This document shows positions 25,393 to 59,613 of a DNA stretch of 64,000 nt, piece after piece. Position 1 is the first letter of the stretch; each line of letters begins with the position of its first letter. Made by a program: the position numbers and the translations under genes. Source of the stretch: Fidelibacterota bacterium 408169 (GTDB lineage: Bacteria > Fidelibacterota > Marinisomatia > Marinisomatales > TCS55); assembly GCA_002256485.1 (NCBI GenBank), contig NNSG01000001.1, positions 64,017-128,016 on the forward strand. The letters run 5' to 3'. The notes beneath the pieces were generated by a model. That model was not told the DNA's origin and made no database searches. It saw only the letters and a program-made list of their open reading frames with translations.

Positions 25393-27195
25393 ATGTCCAC
25401 AGCCCATATACGCAATTTTTGTATCATCGCCCACATAGATCACGGCAAGTCTACACTGGCTGATCGTCTATTAGAAGAAACCCACACCCTTTCAAAAAAA
25501 CAAATGAAATCCCAAGTCCTTGACAGCATGGATTTGGAACGTGAGCGGGGGATAACCATCAAAAGCCATCCCATCCAAATGCACTATCAGCACAGCGATG
25601 GGATTGAATATATCTTCAATTTGATCGATACTCCCGGACACGTGGATTTTTCATATGAAGTGAGTCGGTCATTGGCGGCCTGTGAAGGTGCTCTACTTTT
25701 AGTAGATGCTGCTCAAGGAGTCGAAGCGCAAACGGTGAGTAATACCTATTTGGCCATTGAGAATGACCTCGCTTTAATTCCTGTGATTAATAAGATCGAT
25801 TTGCCCGGTGCCCGCATAGATGAAGTGACCGATCAATTGGTGGAACTCATCGGCTGTAATCCGAGTGAAGTGATTAAGGTCAGCGCCAAGGACGGAAGCG
25901 GTATTGAAGATATTTTTCAAGCAATTGTCGAACGAATTTCTGCTCCAATGTACAACGATGATGCACCACTTAGAGCATTGATCTTTGATTCTGTGTATGA
26001 CAATTATAAAGGCGCAATTCCATATATCCGCGTGATGGATGGTGTGTTAAAGCCGGGTACCAGCGCAAAGTTTTTTGCCCACAATCATGTTTATGATGTG
26101 TCTGAAGTGGGTCATTTTATATTGAATCAGGTAAAAGCCAAAGAACTGCGCTCTGGTGATGTGGGATATGTTCTGGCCAGTGTTCGTGATGTGGAGCATG
26201 TTCGTCCTGGGGATACACTGACTACTAAGGAAAACCCTGCATCTAAAGCGTTGCACGGCTATAAGCAAATGCAGCCCATGGTTTTTTCAGGTCTATATCC
26301 ATCAGACAGCGACGATTATGAACAACTGCGAACTGCACTTGATAAACTCAAATTGAATGATGCATCGCTCATATATGAACCGGAAACGAGCGAAGCGTTA
26401 GGCTTTGGGTTTCGTTGTGGATTTTTAGGACTGCTCCATATGGAAATTATCCAAGAGCGATTGGAAAGGGAATTTGATTTAGCGTTGGTTACAACTTCAC
26501 CCAATGTGGGTTATAAAGTTACGGTGAAAGATGGAACGGAAATTGAAGTCCATACTCCTGCAGATATGCCTTTGACAGGAAGAATAATGGAAATCAAAGA
26601 ACCATTTGTTTCTGCAGAGATTATTACACCCAAAGAATATATTGGTAGTCTGATGAAGTTGTGTCAGAAAAAACGGGGTATTTATATCAATACAGATTAT
26701 TTAACCAAAGATAAGGCACAACTTCATTATGAGCTTCCATTAGCAGAGATCATTTTCGATTTCTACGATAAATTGAAATCTGTGTCTCGGGGCTACGCAT
26801 CACTAGATTATTCATTTATTGATTATCGTTCGGGAAATTTGAAAAAACTGGATATACTTCTTTCGGGGGAACAAGTGGATGCTTTGTCGATAATAACCCA
26901 TGCGGATGATGCATTTCATCGGGGGCAGGCATTATGTTCAAAACTGAAAGAACTGATTCCACAACAATTATTTGAAGTGGCAATTCAAGCTTCATTGGGA
27001 ACGAAAATTATTTCAAGATCTACTGTTAAAGCTCTACGTAAAAATGTGACTGCCAAATGTTATGGTGGCGACATTACTCGAAAACGAAAACTGTGGGAAA
27101 AGCAGAAAGAAGGTAAAAAACGTATGAAAAAAGTGGGCAAAGTTGAAATCCCGCAAGAAGCATTATTGGCGGTATTGCAAATTGATAATGATTAA
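25393..27195 (+). CDS. lepA: Elongation factor 4
   Basis: [54 protein letters not shown]. Confidence 0.99.
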
Positions 27196-54585: not shown

Positions 54586-55109
54586 TGAAACATTTCCTTT
54601 TAATATCTGCTGTCCTCTGGTTTGGGTGTGCCACTCCTGGACCACAGGGCCCTCCCGGCCCACAGGGTGAACCCGGAGCACCCGGTAAGCAAGGATTGCC
54701 GGGCAAACAAGGAAATTCGGGAGAACCGGGACTACCCGGTAAAGTGGATCCTTCTTTAATAGAGAAATTAGAAGACGCACTTAAAGGAGGTCTCAACGAT
54801 GAGAAAAAAGAAAGTATTACTGCGTCCGTTCATTATTCATTTGGCATTGCACCGCCTTCCATGGGTTTTGCAATTATGACGAATCATGGAAACATCTATC
54901 AATTGAAAAATAAAAATCCAGTTACAATGGGAGATAATTTTGAATTTCTAGTGCGAGTCGCTGAACATGATGATTTTGTTTCACTCTCTTTTTTATCGGG
55001 CGGAGAAGGGCAAAAACATTTTTATATGGCCATAAGTGAAAGTGGGAAATCTTATGTATCCGAAGACCTTAAAAAATGGTCATATAAAGGTGAAATCCCT
55101 TTAAAATGA
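54585..55109 (+). CDS. Collagen-repeat lipoprotein
   Basis: Lipobox LWFGC then 12 consecutive G-X-Y triplets (54639-54746); start set at ATG 54585. Confidence 0.85.
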
Positions 55110-56854
55110 TTTGTAAAACCGCATTCCTCGCGGTCATTATTTCCAGTTTTATTTATGCCGGTCATCCCATTTCAATCGATGGTTTGTTTGAAGATTGGGA
55201 CAATGTACCATTATCTTACCAGGATCAAGAAGGTGATATGAGTTTGGGAATGGTTGACTTTGCTGATTTTAAAATCACCTACGATAATGAATTTCTGTTC
55301 ATTTATTTTTCAATTTATTCCAATGATTTTCTTCTTCAGGATAACAATTCAGTCAATTTATATATTGATGCGGATAATGATTCCACTACCGGTCATTATT
55401 ATTTTGGACTCGGTGCAGAATTGCATTGGGAATTTGGGCAGCGAAGCGGTACACATTATGTGGCTGACGGTATTATCCCTGTGGAGCACAGAGATATAAC
55501 ATTTCGGTCTTCACCCACCATCACCTCCCAGGAGTTTGAGATCTGTATTGCACGTGACAGTTATGCTCTTCAATCAGAATACTCCGAAGAGTTAGTGGAA
55601 GGGAGGATCGTCATCGCAGAATCACCGCCTAATTCAGATTTTTTACCGAATGAACCGGGAGGTGTACCATTTTATATAGGAGAGGATCTGATCCCTGAAC
55701 CGATTCCCATTTCGTTTGAAAAACGCCATGATGATGATATTCGCTTGGTGAGCCATAATGTATGGAGTTCTGCACTGATTAATGATGATTATCAGGAACA
55801 CTTTCGCAGAATTTACCAGTCGTTAAATCCGGATATTGTCGTACTCCAAGAAATGTATGAAAATACAAATCAACTCCACAGTTTATTCAATTCCTGGTTT
55901 CCCGATGAGCAATGGTATGTAAGCAACCAATTTAGGGATAATATCATTATATCGAAATATCCGGTTTTGGAGCAGAACTTTTTTACATCATCAGAAAGAA
56001 CCATGGTTTCACTATTGGATACTGAAGATGAATTGGGTAAAAATTTAATAATTTTTAATTCTCATTTAGCCTGTTGTGATAACGATGAAAGTCGCCAGTA
56101 TGATGCGGATGAATTTGTATCCAATTGGAGGGAATGGCGCAATAATGATAATGGACCTTTTACCTTAGTAGATAGCACACCATTTGTTCATGTTGGAGAT
56201 TTTAATTTAGTTGGAAATCGCCAACAACTAACTACTCTAACCGAGGGAGATATTGAAGATGAAAATGTGTTTGGAGACGATTATGCTTTAGATTGGGATG
56301 GGACACCCATTGCGGACTTGTTTTCCAGGCATTCTCATAAGCGGATGGGTTATACTTGGCGATATGATTACAGTTCTTACAGTCCCGGAAAACTGGACTA
56401 TATTTTATATTCCGATAGTGTCATTGATACGTCCAAGCATTTTGTTTTGAATACATTGACAATGGATTCTACATCTTTGTTATTTTATGGTTTGGATCCC
56501 ATGGACAGTTATAATTCATCAGACCATTCTCCAAGAGTGTTGGATATTAAAATCCCGGATAATGTAGGAATTGGCTCGTCTATTATTCCAAAATCTATTA
56601 AAATTTCAGCGCCCTATCCCAATCCTTTCAATCCTCAAACCATGATACAAATAGAATTAGATCAAAGTACATATTTACAAGCAAACGTATATGATATCAA
56701 TGGTCGCTTTGTAAAGAAGCTTATTGAAAAAGATTTTCAAAGTGGAAGACATGAAATAAAATTCAAAAACAATGGTTTGACCAGTGGAATTTATTTTATT
56801 AAAATTCAAAATGTTGAAATCCAGCGAACATTAAAAGTGGTACTCTTAAAATAA
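55106..56854 (+). CDS. Secreted endonuclease/exonuclease/phosphatase with C-terminal T9SS/FlgD-like sorting domain
   Basis: VSHNV, DIVVLQE, HVGDFN, KLDYI, SDH; C-terminal PYPNPFNP...VYDINGR...GIYFIK. Confidence 0.88.
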   Translation: MICKTAFLAVIISSFIYAGHPISIDGLFEDWDNVPLSYQDQEGDMSLGMVDFADFKITYDNEFLFIYFSIYSNDFLLQDNNSVNLYIDADNDSTTGHYYFGLGAELHWEFGQRSGTHYVADGIIPVEHRDITFRSSPTITSQEFEICIARDSYALQSEYSEELVEGRIVIAESPPNSDFLPNEPGGVPFYIGEDLIPEPIPISFEKRHDDDIRLVSHNVWSSALINDDYQEHFRRIYQSLNPDIVVLQEMYENTNQLHSLFNSWFPDEQWYVSNQFRDNIIISKYPVLEQNFFTSSERTMVSLLDTEDELGKNLIIFNSHLACCDNDESRQYDADEFVSNWREWRNNDNGPFTLVDSTPFVHVGDFNLVGNRQQLTTLTEGDIEDENVFGDDYALDWDGTPIADLFSRHSHKRMGYTWRYDYSSYSPGKLDYILYSDSVIDTSKHFVLNTLTMDSTSLLFYGLDPMDSYNSSDHSPRVLDIKIPDNVGIGSSIIPKSIKISAPYPNPFNPQTMIQIELDQSTYLQANVYDINGRFVKKLIEKDFQSGRHEIKFKNNGLTSGIYFIKIQNVEIQRTLKVVLLK

Positions 56855-57177
56855 TGAGTGCACATTCAAAAATCGTTTTTTCTACGAATTCTGATTTTCA
56901 GCATGAAGAAGAAAAAACGTTAGAAACAGTCTCTAACGAACATCAGCAATTACGAGTCTGGCTTAAGCGTTTAGGCGGGGGAAGGGTCGTTTCTTTGGTT
57001 AAAGGATTTATTGGAAAAGAAGAAGATTTACAATCACTGGGGAAACTATTAAAAACAAAATGCAGCTCGGGCGGAACAGTTAAAAATGGTGAAATTCTCA
57101 TCCAAGGTGATCATCGGGATAAAATTGTGAACTTTCTCAATCAAAAAGGATATAAAGCAAAAGCCAGCGGAGGATAA
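56854..57177 (+). CDS. yciH: SUI1/YciH translation initiation factor
   Basis: GGGRVVSLVKGF, LKTKCSSGGTVKNGEILIQGDHR. Confidence 0.93.
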   Translation: MSAHSKIVFSTNSDFQHEEEKTLETVSNEHQQLRVWLKRLGGGRVVSLVKGFIGKEEDLQSLGKLLKTKCSSGGTVKNGEILIQGDHRDKIVNFLNQKGYKAKASGG

Positions 57178-57221: not shown

Positions 57222-58409
57222 ATGAAAATGATAAAAAATACATTATTATTAATTCTTGGAATCAGCTTAACGGGCTGCGGAAAACCGGCAAAAACCGGTT
57301 TTGTAACCATGATGGTAACTGCAAACGTTCGTGCCCAACTTGACCCCTGCGGCTGAAAAAAGAATCCCCTGGGCGGTCTGTCCAGGAAGTCAGTTATTGT
57401 AAATAATTACCGTAAGGAAAATGGTCATGAACCCATTATTCTTGATGCCGGAGATACCTTTTTTGCATCAGCCATTTTAGCCAATCGCAATGCAGAAGGT
57501 GACATGCTTCAGGCAAAAGGCTTATTACAGGGATATGAAAAAATTGGATGTGATGCTTTGAACGTAGGTGGATTTGATCTTGCAGCAGGTAAAGACTTTT
57601 TAATGTCACTTGCTGAAGGATCATCTATACCATTTATTTCTGCAAACTTAACAGATAGGGATAATAATCTTCTATTTCCGGAATTTACAATTGTAGAAAA
57701 TAACGGATTTAAAATTGGTGTTACAGGTGTGAGCGATCTTATTCCCGATCATATAAAAGATGTCAAAAAACGACCTTACATCGAAGCGGCCAAAAATGTG
57801 ATAGAAGAAATGAAACCCCAAGTGGATTTTGTTGTTTTATTAGCAAATGTACATCGTAAAAAGAACAAGGAATTGTCGCAAAATTTTCCGGATGTTGATT
57901 ATATATTTGTAAGTCGAAATACACAGCGATCACGACCGGAAACAAATCAACCTGAAGGTGGTCCTTATGTATATTCGAGCGGTAATCAGGGGAAATACTT
58001 AACTGTCGTTGATATTGCATTAAATGATCCAAGTCAACCAATAATGGACATTTCTGCAGCTAAAGGAAAAATATCATCCATTTCCAGGCGGTTGAAAAAA
58101 TTGCAGGAAAAAGATCCAAGCAAGACGATAGAAGAAATTTATTTCGATAAACCCAATGTGCTTAAACTGGTAGGTGACTATCGTGAACAATTGGTCAAAT
58201 ATGAATCAATCATGGCTGATGCAATTAACACAACAAAATTTCATAGTGTTGCTCTCAGTAAAAGTGTGGGTGAAGATTCTGAACTTTTGGCATTTGTAGA
58301 TGAAACATTAGCTACATGTTCAGCTCTCCGCAAAAAACCTATCAAGTCTACTAAAAATCTCATCAAACCTAAAACAGGCCCAATCAAAAAGAAGTTCAGC
58401 ATAAACTGA
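57222..58409 (+). CDS. UshA-like selenoprotein (395 aa lipoprotein, Sec at codon 45, TGA 57354-57356)
   Basis: Lipobox LTGC; frame is continuous through ...LDPCG-TGA-KKNPLGGLSRK...LDAGD into the ORF-track 57504 protein; SECIS follows the TGA. Confidence 0.9.
57368..57386 (+). promoter_or_regulatory. Bacterial SECIS element
   Basis: CCTGGGC-GGTCT-GTCCAGG 7-bp stem starting 11 nt after the UGA; GGUCU apex as in the E. coli fdhF SECIS. Confidence 0.88.
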
Positions 58410-58411
58410 TT

Positions 58412-58876
58412 ATGCTCCGCGTTCCACTAAATCAAATGCTGGCGATTGTTATCCTTTCGATTATAGTCGGAATTTTTGTAAATATTTTACGATCTGATAG
58501 TATTCCACTATTAGCTAAAGAAATCGCAATAGCTGAAGACCTTGATGTAGTTTTCGGTGAACCTGTTGCAATTACTTTAGATCAAGCAAAAAATTTATTT
58601 GATGAAGGTGTCATTTTTGTTGATGCAAGAGACAATGAATATTTCATAGATGGTCATATACCAAACGCTTGGAATAGCGGTTTTTTCATGGAGTTAATGT
58701 TTAAACTGGATTCAGCACAGACTAAATCAGGCCCTGTTGTGTTGTATTGCAGCGATGATGAATGTGGTTCCAGTGAAGAATTAGCGAATGATTTATACAA
58801 TGAAGGATTTACAAAGCTATACGTATTTAAAGGTGGTTGGCTGGAATGGGAAGCAGCAGGTTATCCGGTAGAATGA
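58412..58876 (+). CDS. Membrane-anchored rhodanese-domain protein
   Basis: N-terminal TM; FVDAR...GHIPNA...LYCSDDECGSS...FKGGWLEW. Confidence 0.9.
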   Translation: MLRVPLNQMLAIVILSIIVGIFVNILRSDSIPLLAKEIAIAEDLDVVFGEPVAITLDQAKNLFDEGVIFVDARDNEYFIDGHIPNAWNSGFFMELMFKLDSAQTKSGPVVLYCSDDECGSSEELANDLYNEGFTKLYVFKGGWLEWEAAGYPVE

Positions 58877-59322
58877 AAAATGAATTAAAAAATGCATTGG
58901 TATTATTTTGCCGTGTTGTCCTTGGGATAATGTTTATTTATGCCAGTTTGGATAAGATTGCTCATCCGGAAGAATTTGCCAAGCAAATTGGATTTTATAA
59001 AGTACTTCCCTTTGGAGTGGAGAACATTTTAGGAATTGTATTACCTTGGACAGAGTTGATCGTCGGTATTTGTTTAATAACAGGATTATTAGTTGATGGT
59101 GCAGCATTATTGAGTATTATAATGATGTTGGTGTTTATTTTAGCTATTTCACAAGCAATGCTTCGAGGTATCGATATTACATGTGGATGTTTTAAAGTCA
59201 GCGCTGATAGTGAAAAGTTGGGATTGGATATAATCATACGTGACATAATTTTTCTTGTAATGAGCTTCATTGTACTAAACCGCCAGGAAAGAAAGTTTGA
59301 ATTCCTACCAAAATCCGATTGA
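58873..59322 (+). CDS. MauE/DoxX-family membrane protein
   Basis: RVVLGIMF, LPWTELIVG, RGIDITCGCF, IIRD; ATGA overlap with the rhodanese gene. Confidence 0.88.
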   Translation: MKNELKNALVLFCRVVLGIMFIYASLDKIAHPEEFAKQIGFYKVLPFGVENILGIVLPWTELIVGICLITGLLVDGAALLSIIMMLVFILAISQAMLRGIDITCGCFKVSADSEKLGLDIIIRDIIFLVMSFIVLNRQERKFEFLPKSD

Positions 59323-59363: not shown

Positions 59364-59436
<73 letters not shown>

Positions 59437-59438
59437 CT

Positions 59439-59460
59439 AAAGCCCCGGTATCGGGGCTTT
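59439..59460 (+). terminator. Intrinsic terminator after tRNA-Gly
   Basis: AAAGCCCCG-gtat-CGGGGCTTT; same AAAGCCCC/GGGGCTTT stem as the guaB-rpsT terminator. Confidence 0.8.
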
Positions 59461-59613
59461 ATCATTTGTTTTATTTATAATATTTTTAAAAATATCCATG
59501 AAAAGATTTAGGTGTTATAGGAATTAATTAAATCAAATGAATGACCAGAGCATAATTGAAAGATATAATTACTATAGGGTAAAATATAACAGCAGCATTT
59601 CAGGTTTAATCAT

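Follow-up and report, generated by a model that had tools for sequence, protein, structure and literature searches.

Three co-oriented genes on the forward strand of a 64,000-nucleotide stretch of Fidelibacterota bacterium 408169 (the whole stretch is called the window here; the genes occupy 57222-59322 of it) encode a lipoprotein with a Cys-Gly-Sec motif (Sec, selenocysteine), a membrane-anchored rhodanese and a MauE/DoxX membrane protein. The question that the locus raises is whether these three proteins act together and, if so, in which chemistry. The original prediction, made from the letters of the window, suggested a membrane-to-periplasm relay for persulfide or perselenide transfer, disulfide maturation or detoxification. 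We arrive, with a probability of about 50%, at a dedicated quinone-linked redox relay that would connect MauE through the rhodanese to the Cys-Gly-Sec motif. The predicted layout proved correct in all its coordinates: genes 1 and 2 are separated by 2 nucleotides (nt; 58410-58411), the stop codon of gene 2 and the ATG of gene 3 overlap in ATGA (58873-58876), and a tRNA-Gly gene lies just 3' of the unit. The reactive motif predicted for each product was also found in every case, as CGU at amino acids (aa) 43-45 of the first, YCSDDEC at aa 112-118 of the second and TCGCF at aa 103-107 of the third. As their conservation shows, none of these motifs arose by chance.

An in-frame TGA codon of gene 1 encodes selenocysteine

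Translation with table 11 breaks gene 1 (57222-58409, +) into one open reading frame (ORF) of 44 aa and another of 301 aa. With TGA read as Sec (U), the product is a single chain of 395 aa, MKMIKNTLLLILGISLTGC...DPCGU...KKFSIN. The TGA (57354-57356) belongs to the codons TGC GGC TGA for Cys43-Gly44-Sec45 (57348-57356, +). Among 80 related loci, whose titles, where they name a taxon, are all Marinimicrobia, Fidelibacterota or Fibrobacteres-Chlorobi-Bacteroidetes (FCB) group, 79 cover this site, and each of them (79/79) has TGA at the position of U45.

A hairpin resembling a selenocysteine insertion sequence (SECIS), with a stem of 6 base pairs and a GGUCU loop, starts 13 nt past the UGA (57369-57385, +). 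The loop is similar to that of the fdhF element. Across 77 distinct sequences, GGCGGTCTG is nucleotide-invariant, wobble positions included, and the stem shows covariation. Stem pair 18-30, which joins two four-fold-degenerate third positions, is GC in 40 sequences, AU in 20, GU in 7, CG in 6 and UA in 4, and is unpaired in none. Overall, 93.9% of the stem cells are paired, versus 22-54% when the partners are slid. Folding of the single sequence gave a z-score of -1.28, which is not significant alone, and Rfam returned no match to a selenocysteine insertion element at gene 1, the tRNA being its sole match.

The host genome (G000; 2.47 Mb, 38% GC, about 95% complete) has the machinery for Sec, namely selD (405 bits), selA (517 bits) and a tRNA-SeC detected by ARAGORN. 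Relatives of gene 1 in the streamlined f3 lineage (same order; genomes of 0.8-1.1 Mb; loci L148-L153; G079, G024, G035, G071, G186 and G210) have the Cys form Y-D-C-G-C. All six of these Cys-form genomes are missing selA, which is present in 6/6 Sec-form genomes. Further Cys forms, EPCGC and DSCGC, were found outside the phylum.

The invariant TGA, the hairpin with its invariant loop and covarying stem, the presence of selA, selD and tRNA-Sec, and the use of Cys where selA is missing together establish that the TGA of gene 1 encodes Sec. Two other readings of the codon were rejected. Decoding as Trp or Gly (genetic code 4 or 25; some public callers print PCGW) is contradicted by genes 1 and 2, both of which end in TGA, as well as by the Sec machinery, the conserved hairpin and the Cys residue of selA-less relatives. 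A true stop, leaving two ORFs or a pseudogene, does not agree with the exported N-terminal piece and with a codon kept in every locus that covers the site.

Two observations concern the Sec machinery itself. The selD gene of the host (contig C47, 44127-45053, minus strand, locus L001) holds one in-frame TGA, and the selenophosphate synthetase of this genome is itself a selenoprotein. ARAGORN called two tRNA-SeC(TCA) genes on contig C23 (173066-173161, minus strand, and 254255-254348, plus strand), one of which may be a false or duplicate call.

The selenoprotein is a short UshA-like lipoprotein with a degenerate active site

The gene 1 product starts with a signal peptide that ends in the lipobox L-T-G-C19 (57222-57278, +), as read directly from the sequence. 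An N-terminal signal peptide was present in every orthologue checked, in most of them with a Cys after the hydrophobic core. The best NCBIfam match is UshA_like_PCGU (NF041198; 2.9e-61, 207.6 bits), which covers profile positions 12-390 of 519 and falls below the curated cut-off of 275 bits. The P-C-G-U/C motif that follows the first beta strand in this family is present as D-P-C-G-U (aa 41-45). Pfam identified no domain in the protein, and in particular no Metallophos (PF00149).

An AlphaFold2 model of the protein has a predicted local distance difference test score (pLDDT) of 83.6, with low confidence in the Cys-Gly-Sec loop. Its top Foldseek matches are the N-domains of E. coli UshA (1hp1, E 3e-18) and of CD73. 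The Cys-Gly-Sec loop is located between phosphoesterase motif I and the first helix. Among the metal-binding and catalytic motifs of the phosphoesterases (DxH, GD, GNH[DE], H, GHxH), only the G-D of motif II is kept. The G-N-H-E of UshA (A-I-G-N-H-E-F) is aligned by HMMER to n-v-G-(k/G)-(y/F)-(e/D) in the gene 1 family, and by our own reading of the alignment N-V-R stands for D-x-H, N for the His of motif IV and S-R-N-T for G-H-x-H. The likeness to E. coli UshA and human CD73 thus comprises the N-terminal metallophosphoesterase fold (Foldseek E ~1e-18), the motif II G-D and the GGxxR helix start, whereas motif III is degenerate, motifs IV and V on our reading have other residues in place of His, and the C-terminal nucleotide-binding domain is absent. 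An active nucleotidase was considered and rejected on these motif losses and on the absent Pfam Metallophos match: with most metal-binding and catalytic residues lost, the lipoprotein is not a nucleotidase.

An exhaustive profile search yielded 275 representative clusters at E<=1e-30, including Cys forms and longer forms. Long relatives (450-545 aa), whose length fits the 519-position NCBIfam model, carry fused domains of the multihaem cytochrome c type (PF13435, PF14522). Compared with the NF041198 family, the window protein has the same P-C-G-U site in a 5'-nucleotidase-like N-domain, the same alternation of Sec and Cys and the same export, and differs in its score below the cut-off, in the partial profile coverage and in the absence of the C-terminal multihaem cytochrome c part. 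It is thus a short, haem-less, lipid-anchored form built on a phosphoesterase scaffold that has been disabled, and the long members of its family are wired to electron carriers. The protein also has a weak similarity to the thiosulfohydrolase SoxB (7e-13).

The family corresponds to "COG0737 UshA-like, CxU" of the Global Ocean Sampling survey, which listed 76 Sec and 92 Cys sequences and counted it among the 20 families that jointly made up about 95% of the marine selenoprotein sequences detected in that 2008 survey (PMC2398784). It reappears in later catalogues, as NF041198, with no function or partner assigned (PMC9312934, PMC13188914).

Some relatives are much longer. P0173, P0226 and P0249 reach about 1200 aa, with two UshA-like CxC domains and CxxCH haem motifs in one chain (P0173 sequence). 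Many orthologues (P0037, P0043, P0060, P0088 and others) end in a His-rich C-terminal tail, for example H-S-G-H-N-H, which may be metal-binding and is absent from the window protein.

The neighbouring genes encode a two-cysteine rhodanese and a MauE protein

Gene 2 (58412-58876, +) encodes a rhodanese-fold protein of 154 aa (PF00581; 2e-14, 54.3 bits, cut-off 22.2) with one N-terminal transmembrane (TM) helix at aa 8-26, as judged by hydropathy. Its active-site loop is Y-C113-S-D-D-E-C118 (C-x4-C; 58745-58765, +). The protein holds exactly two cysteines, C113 and C118, which are conserved in 62/62 and 61/62 sequences, respectively. The loop consensus, C-S-D-D-[DE]-C, is acidic and free of Arg and Lys, unlike the anion-binding loops of sulfurtransferases. 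The cationic six-residue loop of thiosulfate sulfurtransferases of the GlpE/PspE type was not found, its place being taken by S-D-D-[DE]-C-G. The NCBIfam sulfurtransferase models scored far below their cut-offs (GlpE, 28.2 versus 102 bits), and the TsoB model NF045694 gave a weak match (1.3e-5, 23.5 versus 805 bits).

Gene 3 (58873-59322, +) encodes a MauE/DoxX protein of 149 aa with four hydrophobic segments (PF07291, 1.1e-29, 103.7 bits, cut-off 27; PF07681, 2.4e-11). The motif C104-G105-C106 (59182-59190, +) lies in the loop between TM3 and TM4 and is conserved in 61/61 sequences, as are K28 in TM1 and E61 in TM2. The HvfX model, which describes DoxX-family maturation proteins of copper-related RiPPs (ribosomally synthesised and post-translationally modified peptides), matched gene 3 weakly.

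These residues have recently acquired a biochemical meaning. MauE proteins of Caldithrix and Desulfatibacillum complement an E. coli dsbB deletion, for which they need the periplasm-facing CXC between TM3 and TM4, and a docked quinone lies close to two conserved residues, Lys in TM1 and Glu in TM2 (bioRxiv 10.64898/2026.03.05.709764). The same study reports fused thioredoxin-superfamily domains in 8% of MauE entries, and we independently observed MauE-thioredoxin and MauE-DsbA fusions. The gene 3 product has the feature set of a DsbB-like disulfide generator; oxidase activity and quinone coupling are predicted from it.

All three reactive motifs are placed in the periplasm

The charge bias around the rhodanese anchor was uninformative. 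A natural rhodanese-MauE fusion settled the relative topology. Its six hydrophobic helices comprise the anchor, followed by the rhodanese domain, then an extra helix and the four MauE helices. The rhodanese domain of the fusion is acidic (9 K/R versus 30 D/E) and is found, like the CGC loop, in an odd-numbered loop, with the short K/R-bearing loops on the opposite side. An AlphaFold2 model of the fusion has the same six helices; its confidence is low (pLDDT 61, predicted template modelling score 0.37), and it was therefore used for the helix count only.

The rhodanese and MauE motifs are thus on the same side of the membrane. Combined with the published periplasmic position of the MauE CXC and with the lipoprotein signal peptide, the topology of the fusion places all three reactive motifs in the periplasm. 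The reactive residues do not fall in different compartments, the arrangement that the original prediction had named as fatal to its relay.

Linkage is conserved in the phylum and not universal

We classified 127 loci, made up of the 80 related loci, 34 regions from genomes of the phylum, the six Cys-form loci and metagenome contigs. The order selenoprotein-rhodanese-MauE (ush>rho>mau) was found in 61 and the order rho>mau>ush in 25; neither partner was present in 24, a contig end cut the locus in 16, and MauE was on the opposite strand in one. Linkage is therefore kept in 86 of the 111 assessable loci. The expectation that the three genes would be linked in other genomes is borne out by these loci, by the existence of two gene orders and by gene fusions. 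It does not extend to all relatives, as family f21 of the same class, other classes and the Cys lineage depart from it.

In a tree of the selenoprotein sequences, the ush>rho>mau arrangement is found in an early clade of 8 members and in most of another with 79. The rho>mau>ush arrangement accounts for 25 of the 26 rows of a separate clade, to which further families of this class belong. The tree requires no fewer than 8 switches between the linked and the unlinked state. In at least six loci (L089, L103-L105, L114, L117) the rhodanese and MauE form a single polypeptide, and both Cys pairs are invariant among 11 such fused proteins. The selenoprotein is widespread in the phylum, with homologues in 304 of the 401 genomes sampled, in 163 of 190 high-quality genomes and in 101 of 114 genera.

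A paralogous clade of Sec proteins has a signal peptide without the lipobox Cys. Four members (L054, L061, L062, L074) are second copies in the same metagenome-assembled genomes as L024, L016, L022 and L037, and where upstream sequence is available they lie downstream of an exported thioredoxin-fold protein with the motif WCKPC. Two conserved, unannotated exported proteins are also found upstream of the paralogous form.

Outside the phylum, one haem-fused form from Desulfatiglans has an immediate MauE neighbour, convergent on the opposite strand. No MauE neighbour was present for a short Cys form and for three further haem-fused forms from outside the phylum. The relative P0147 lies on a 1.5-kb contig that gives no gene context. 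We had considered that the selenoprotein uses either the rhodanese/MauE pair or the fused cytochrome as its electron partner and never both, an idea weakened by the Desulfatiglans protein, which is haem-fused and adjoins MauE.

In the f21 loci (L142-L147), MauE is the N-terminal part of proteins of 316-343 aa, the C-terminal half of which is not matched by Pfam, and a rhodanese gene is not among the neighbours.

A proposed thiol/selenol relay and its alternatives

With linkage found in other genomes and the reactive residues in one compartment, a membrane-to-periplasm relay is the best-supported reading of the locus. This part of the original prediction stands. Among the chemistries that it offered, thiol/disulfide (selenenylsulfide) exchange is favoured by the DsbB-like character of MauE, by the MauE-thioredoxin and MauE-DsbA fusions and by the acidic rhodanese loop with its second Cys; persulfide or perselenide transfer and detoxification found no specific support.

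In the relay that we propose, MauE, presumably coupled to quinone, would make a disulfide at its periplasmic Cys-Gly-Cys. This disulfide would be exchanged with the C-x4-C of the membrane-anchored periplasmic rhodanese, which would fill the slot occupied in other MauE systems by DsbA, MauD or thioredoxin-fold partners. The rhodanese would in turn exchange with the Cys-Gly-Sec of the lipoprotein, oxidising the pair to a selenenylsulfide, and the lipoprotein, as the catalytic end of the chain, would turn over a reduced substrate. The net flow of electrons would most likely lead from a reduced periplasmic substrate over Sec/Cys, the rhodanese and MauE to the quinone pool. The proposal draws on Sec coding, domain identities, motif conservation, conserved linkage and the shared side of the membrane-protein motifs from the present analysis, and, from the literature, on the DsbB-like oxidase function of MauE and its CXC active site. 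From this material we infer that the three proteins exchange electrons with one another, in which direction, with what kind of substrate and through physical interaction.

Other features of the genome and the family fit such a relay. The host genome contains two VKOR homologues on contig C23 (274741-275124, minus strand, and 26526-26903, plus strand), and a search of it found no DsbB and no DsbA-family gene. With two VKORs, general disulfide formation is probably covered, so that the MauE-rhodanese pair looks dedicated. We also count in favour of the relay the redox context of the family, whose long forms are haem-fused and whose paralogue adjoins the WCKPC protein. A more specific version, rather improbable in our estimate, is that the substrate oxidised by the Cys-Gly-Sec lipoprotein is a small compound of reduced sulfur or of another chalcogen, and that the electrons pass via the rhodanese and MauE into the respiratory chain; outside the phylum, the fused multihaem cytochrome may carry electrons also or instead.

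Several observations weigh against a dedicated relay. Sec forms of family f21 and of other classes have no rhodanese or MauE gene within 4 kb. Genomes of the other classes hold the rho>mau pair, with Y-C-x4-C and CGC, elsewhere, and f21 genomes hold only the longer MauE fusion protein, in which no rhodanese was matched. The pair can thus be present without lying beside the selenoprotein gene, and it may serve other clients. The Cys-form loci of the f3 lineage lack an adjacent rhodanese or MauE in all six genomes, and no MauE was found genome-wide in the two that were searched (G024, G071). Within the linked clade, L051, L081 and L082 have lost their rhodanese/MauE neighbours. All linked cases belong to one phylum, and common descent therefore accounts for part of the signal. 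The paralogue's neighbour has a WCxPC motif, as periplasmic reductants typically do, which suggests that electrons flow the other way. Contact between the proteins, quinone binding and the substrate are also inferred. As the genes are unlinked in other classes and one lineage has the Cys form without MauE, coupling of the three genes is not obligate.

The relay could also run in reverse, with quinol-derived or other electrons passing from MauE over the rhodanese to Cys-Gly-Sec, where they would reduce a periplasmic disulfide, polysulfide, sulfoxide, selenite or peroxide. Reductases and peroxidases often contain Sec, and the WCKPC motif next to the paralogue, typical of reductants of the TlpA/ResA type, points the same way, which makes the reductive version a serious rival, if an unlikely one. 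An earlier study suggesting that MauE may be a reductase is cited in the preprint (bioRxiv 10.64898/2026.03.05.709764). What argues for oxidation is that the complementing MauE proteins come from two phyla and act in the oxidising direction in a CXC-dependent manner, that the window MauE has the same CXC, Lys and Glu, and that no electron importer of the DsbD/CcdA type is linked to the operon. Alternatively, the rhodanese and MauE could form a general envelope oxidase or thiol-handling unit that is not coupled to the selenoprotein, their adjacency being inherited synteny in one class. The separate conservation of rho>mau in other classes, the persistence of the Cys form without MauE, the restriction of linked loci to one phylum and the upstream yciH gene, equally syntenic without an obvious functional link, would all be expected in that case. 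We nevertheless hold mere synteny to be quite unlikely, as the adjacency outlived rearrangement and occurs in two gene orders in separate deep clades, the gene junctions overlap or nearly do so, general disulfide formation in the host is probably served already by two VKORs, and a haem-fused relative from a distant phylum adjoins a MauE gene on the opposite strand.

Two further explanations are less probable still. The catalytic Cys of the rhodanese is where the fold canonically has it, thiosulfate:quinone oxidoreductase contains DoxX relatives, and the selenoprotein resembles SoxB weakly; a persulfide or perselenide on C113 might accordingly be passed to or from Cys-Gly-Sec, as in relays of the Sud, PspE and TusA type. 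Such trafficking of sulfane sulfur or selenium is improbable given an acidic loop free of the Arg, Lys or Thr residues that bind anionic sulfur donors, a second conserved Cys five residues on (C118), as in dithiol/disulfide sites, and sulfurtransferase models so far under their cut-offs. Paired Cys/Sec ligands could also bind and hand over a soft metal or metalloid (Hg, Cu, As, Se) rather than transfer electrons. CxC and CxU pairs are able to chelate soft metals, many orthologues carry a His-rich tail of the type H-x-G-H-N-H, and there is the weak HvfX match of gene 3. Since the window protein has no such tail, no metal transporter, reductase or regulator was linked in any locus inspected, and MauE has a demonstrated oxidase role, we regard metal handling as very remote. 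The oxidative thiol/selenol relay from MauE over the rhodanese to the lipoprotein is the reading that we prefer.

Transcription unit and neighbouring genes

The tRNA-Gly(GCC) gene directly 3' of gene 3 (59364-59437, +; ARAGORN, Rfam) is possibly on the same transcript as the three genes. A consensus scan found no terminator from gene 1 to the tRNA; the sole terminator-like hairpin, with a T-rich tail, follows the tRNA (59438-59461, +) and, as a pattern match only, probably marks where the transcription unit ends.

Upstream of the selenoprotein gene is a yciH/SUI1 gene (56854-57177, +; PF01253, TIGR01158), a syntenic neighbour that is found at this position in most related loci and that we do not argue to be part of the module. 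Its start coincides with the last base of the stop codon of the preceding gene. That gene (55106-56854, +) encodes an exported protein of 582 aa that combines an Exo_endo_phos domain with a C-terminal sorting domain for type IX secretion (Por_Secre_tail), which fits an organism of the FCB group.

Relation to known systems and significance

The original prediction knew of no description of the three genes as a system, and we found none in the searchable literature, nor any paper there that links MauE with a rhodanese, or either of them with the UshA-like selenoprotein. The MauE preprint makes no mention of rhodanese, selenoproteins or Marinimicrobia (bioRxiv 10.64898/2026.03.05.709764). The families of all three parts are known, the selenoprotein being catalogued and the activity of MauE newly published; the combination is apparently undescribed.

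The closest parallels are MauE-MauD and DsbB-DsbA, with which the unit shares a four-helix MauE with a periplasmic CXC, a Lys in TM1, a Glu in TM2 and an exported redox partner encoded next door. The partner here, however, has a rhodanese fold with C-x4-C instead of a thioredoxin fold with CXXC, and a third, Sec-containing component is added. TsoB of the 'three selenoprotein operon' (NF045694, U-x4-U) is alike in its rhodanese loop, in two chalcogen residues spaced by x4 and in a membrane thiol-redox domain, but has Sec at both positions and a DsbD-like membrane part instead of MauE (PMC13188914). The membrane thiol oxidoreductase complex DoxX-SseA-SodA of M. tuberculosis also brings together a DoxX-superfamily protein, a rhodanese-type sulfurtransferase and a third redox enzyme (Nambi et al. 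2015, via PMC7907618). In that system, SseA is a cytosolic two-domain protein, the third partner is superoxide dismutase and the function is mycothiol homeostasis, with no Sec or CGC described. A precedent for thiol oxidation is PspE of E. coli, a periplasmic rhodanese that can restore disulfide formation without DsbA (Chng et al. 2012, via PMC5403849). PspE differs in being soluble, in having one Cys, in being a true thiosulfate sulfurtransferase and in working with DsbC only when overexpressed.

The conserved pairing of MauE with a two-cysteine rhodanese provides a testable biochemical context for the catalogued UshA-like CxU family. The Marinimicrobia (SAR406), which carry this selenoprotein widely, are dominant in the deep and oxygen-poor ocean. 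Their family also offers a clean case from nature in which Sec and Cys alternate in step with the loss of the machinery for Sec. The relay would extend the MauE disulfide pathway to a partner without a thioredoxin fold. Should the lipoprotein be a chalcogen-oxidising selenoenzyme, a dead phosphoesterase scaffold would have been put to a new catalytic use, the rhodanese would be the first physiological partner of its type for a DsbB-like enzyme, and the system would constitute an unrecognised route of energy or sulfur cycling in one of the most abundant phyla of the dark ocean.

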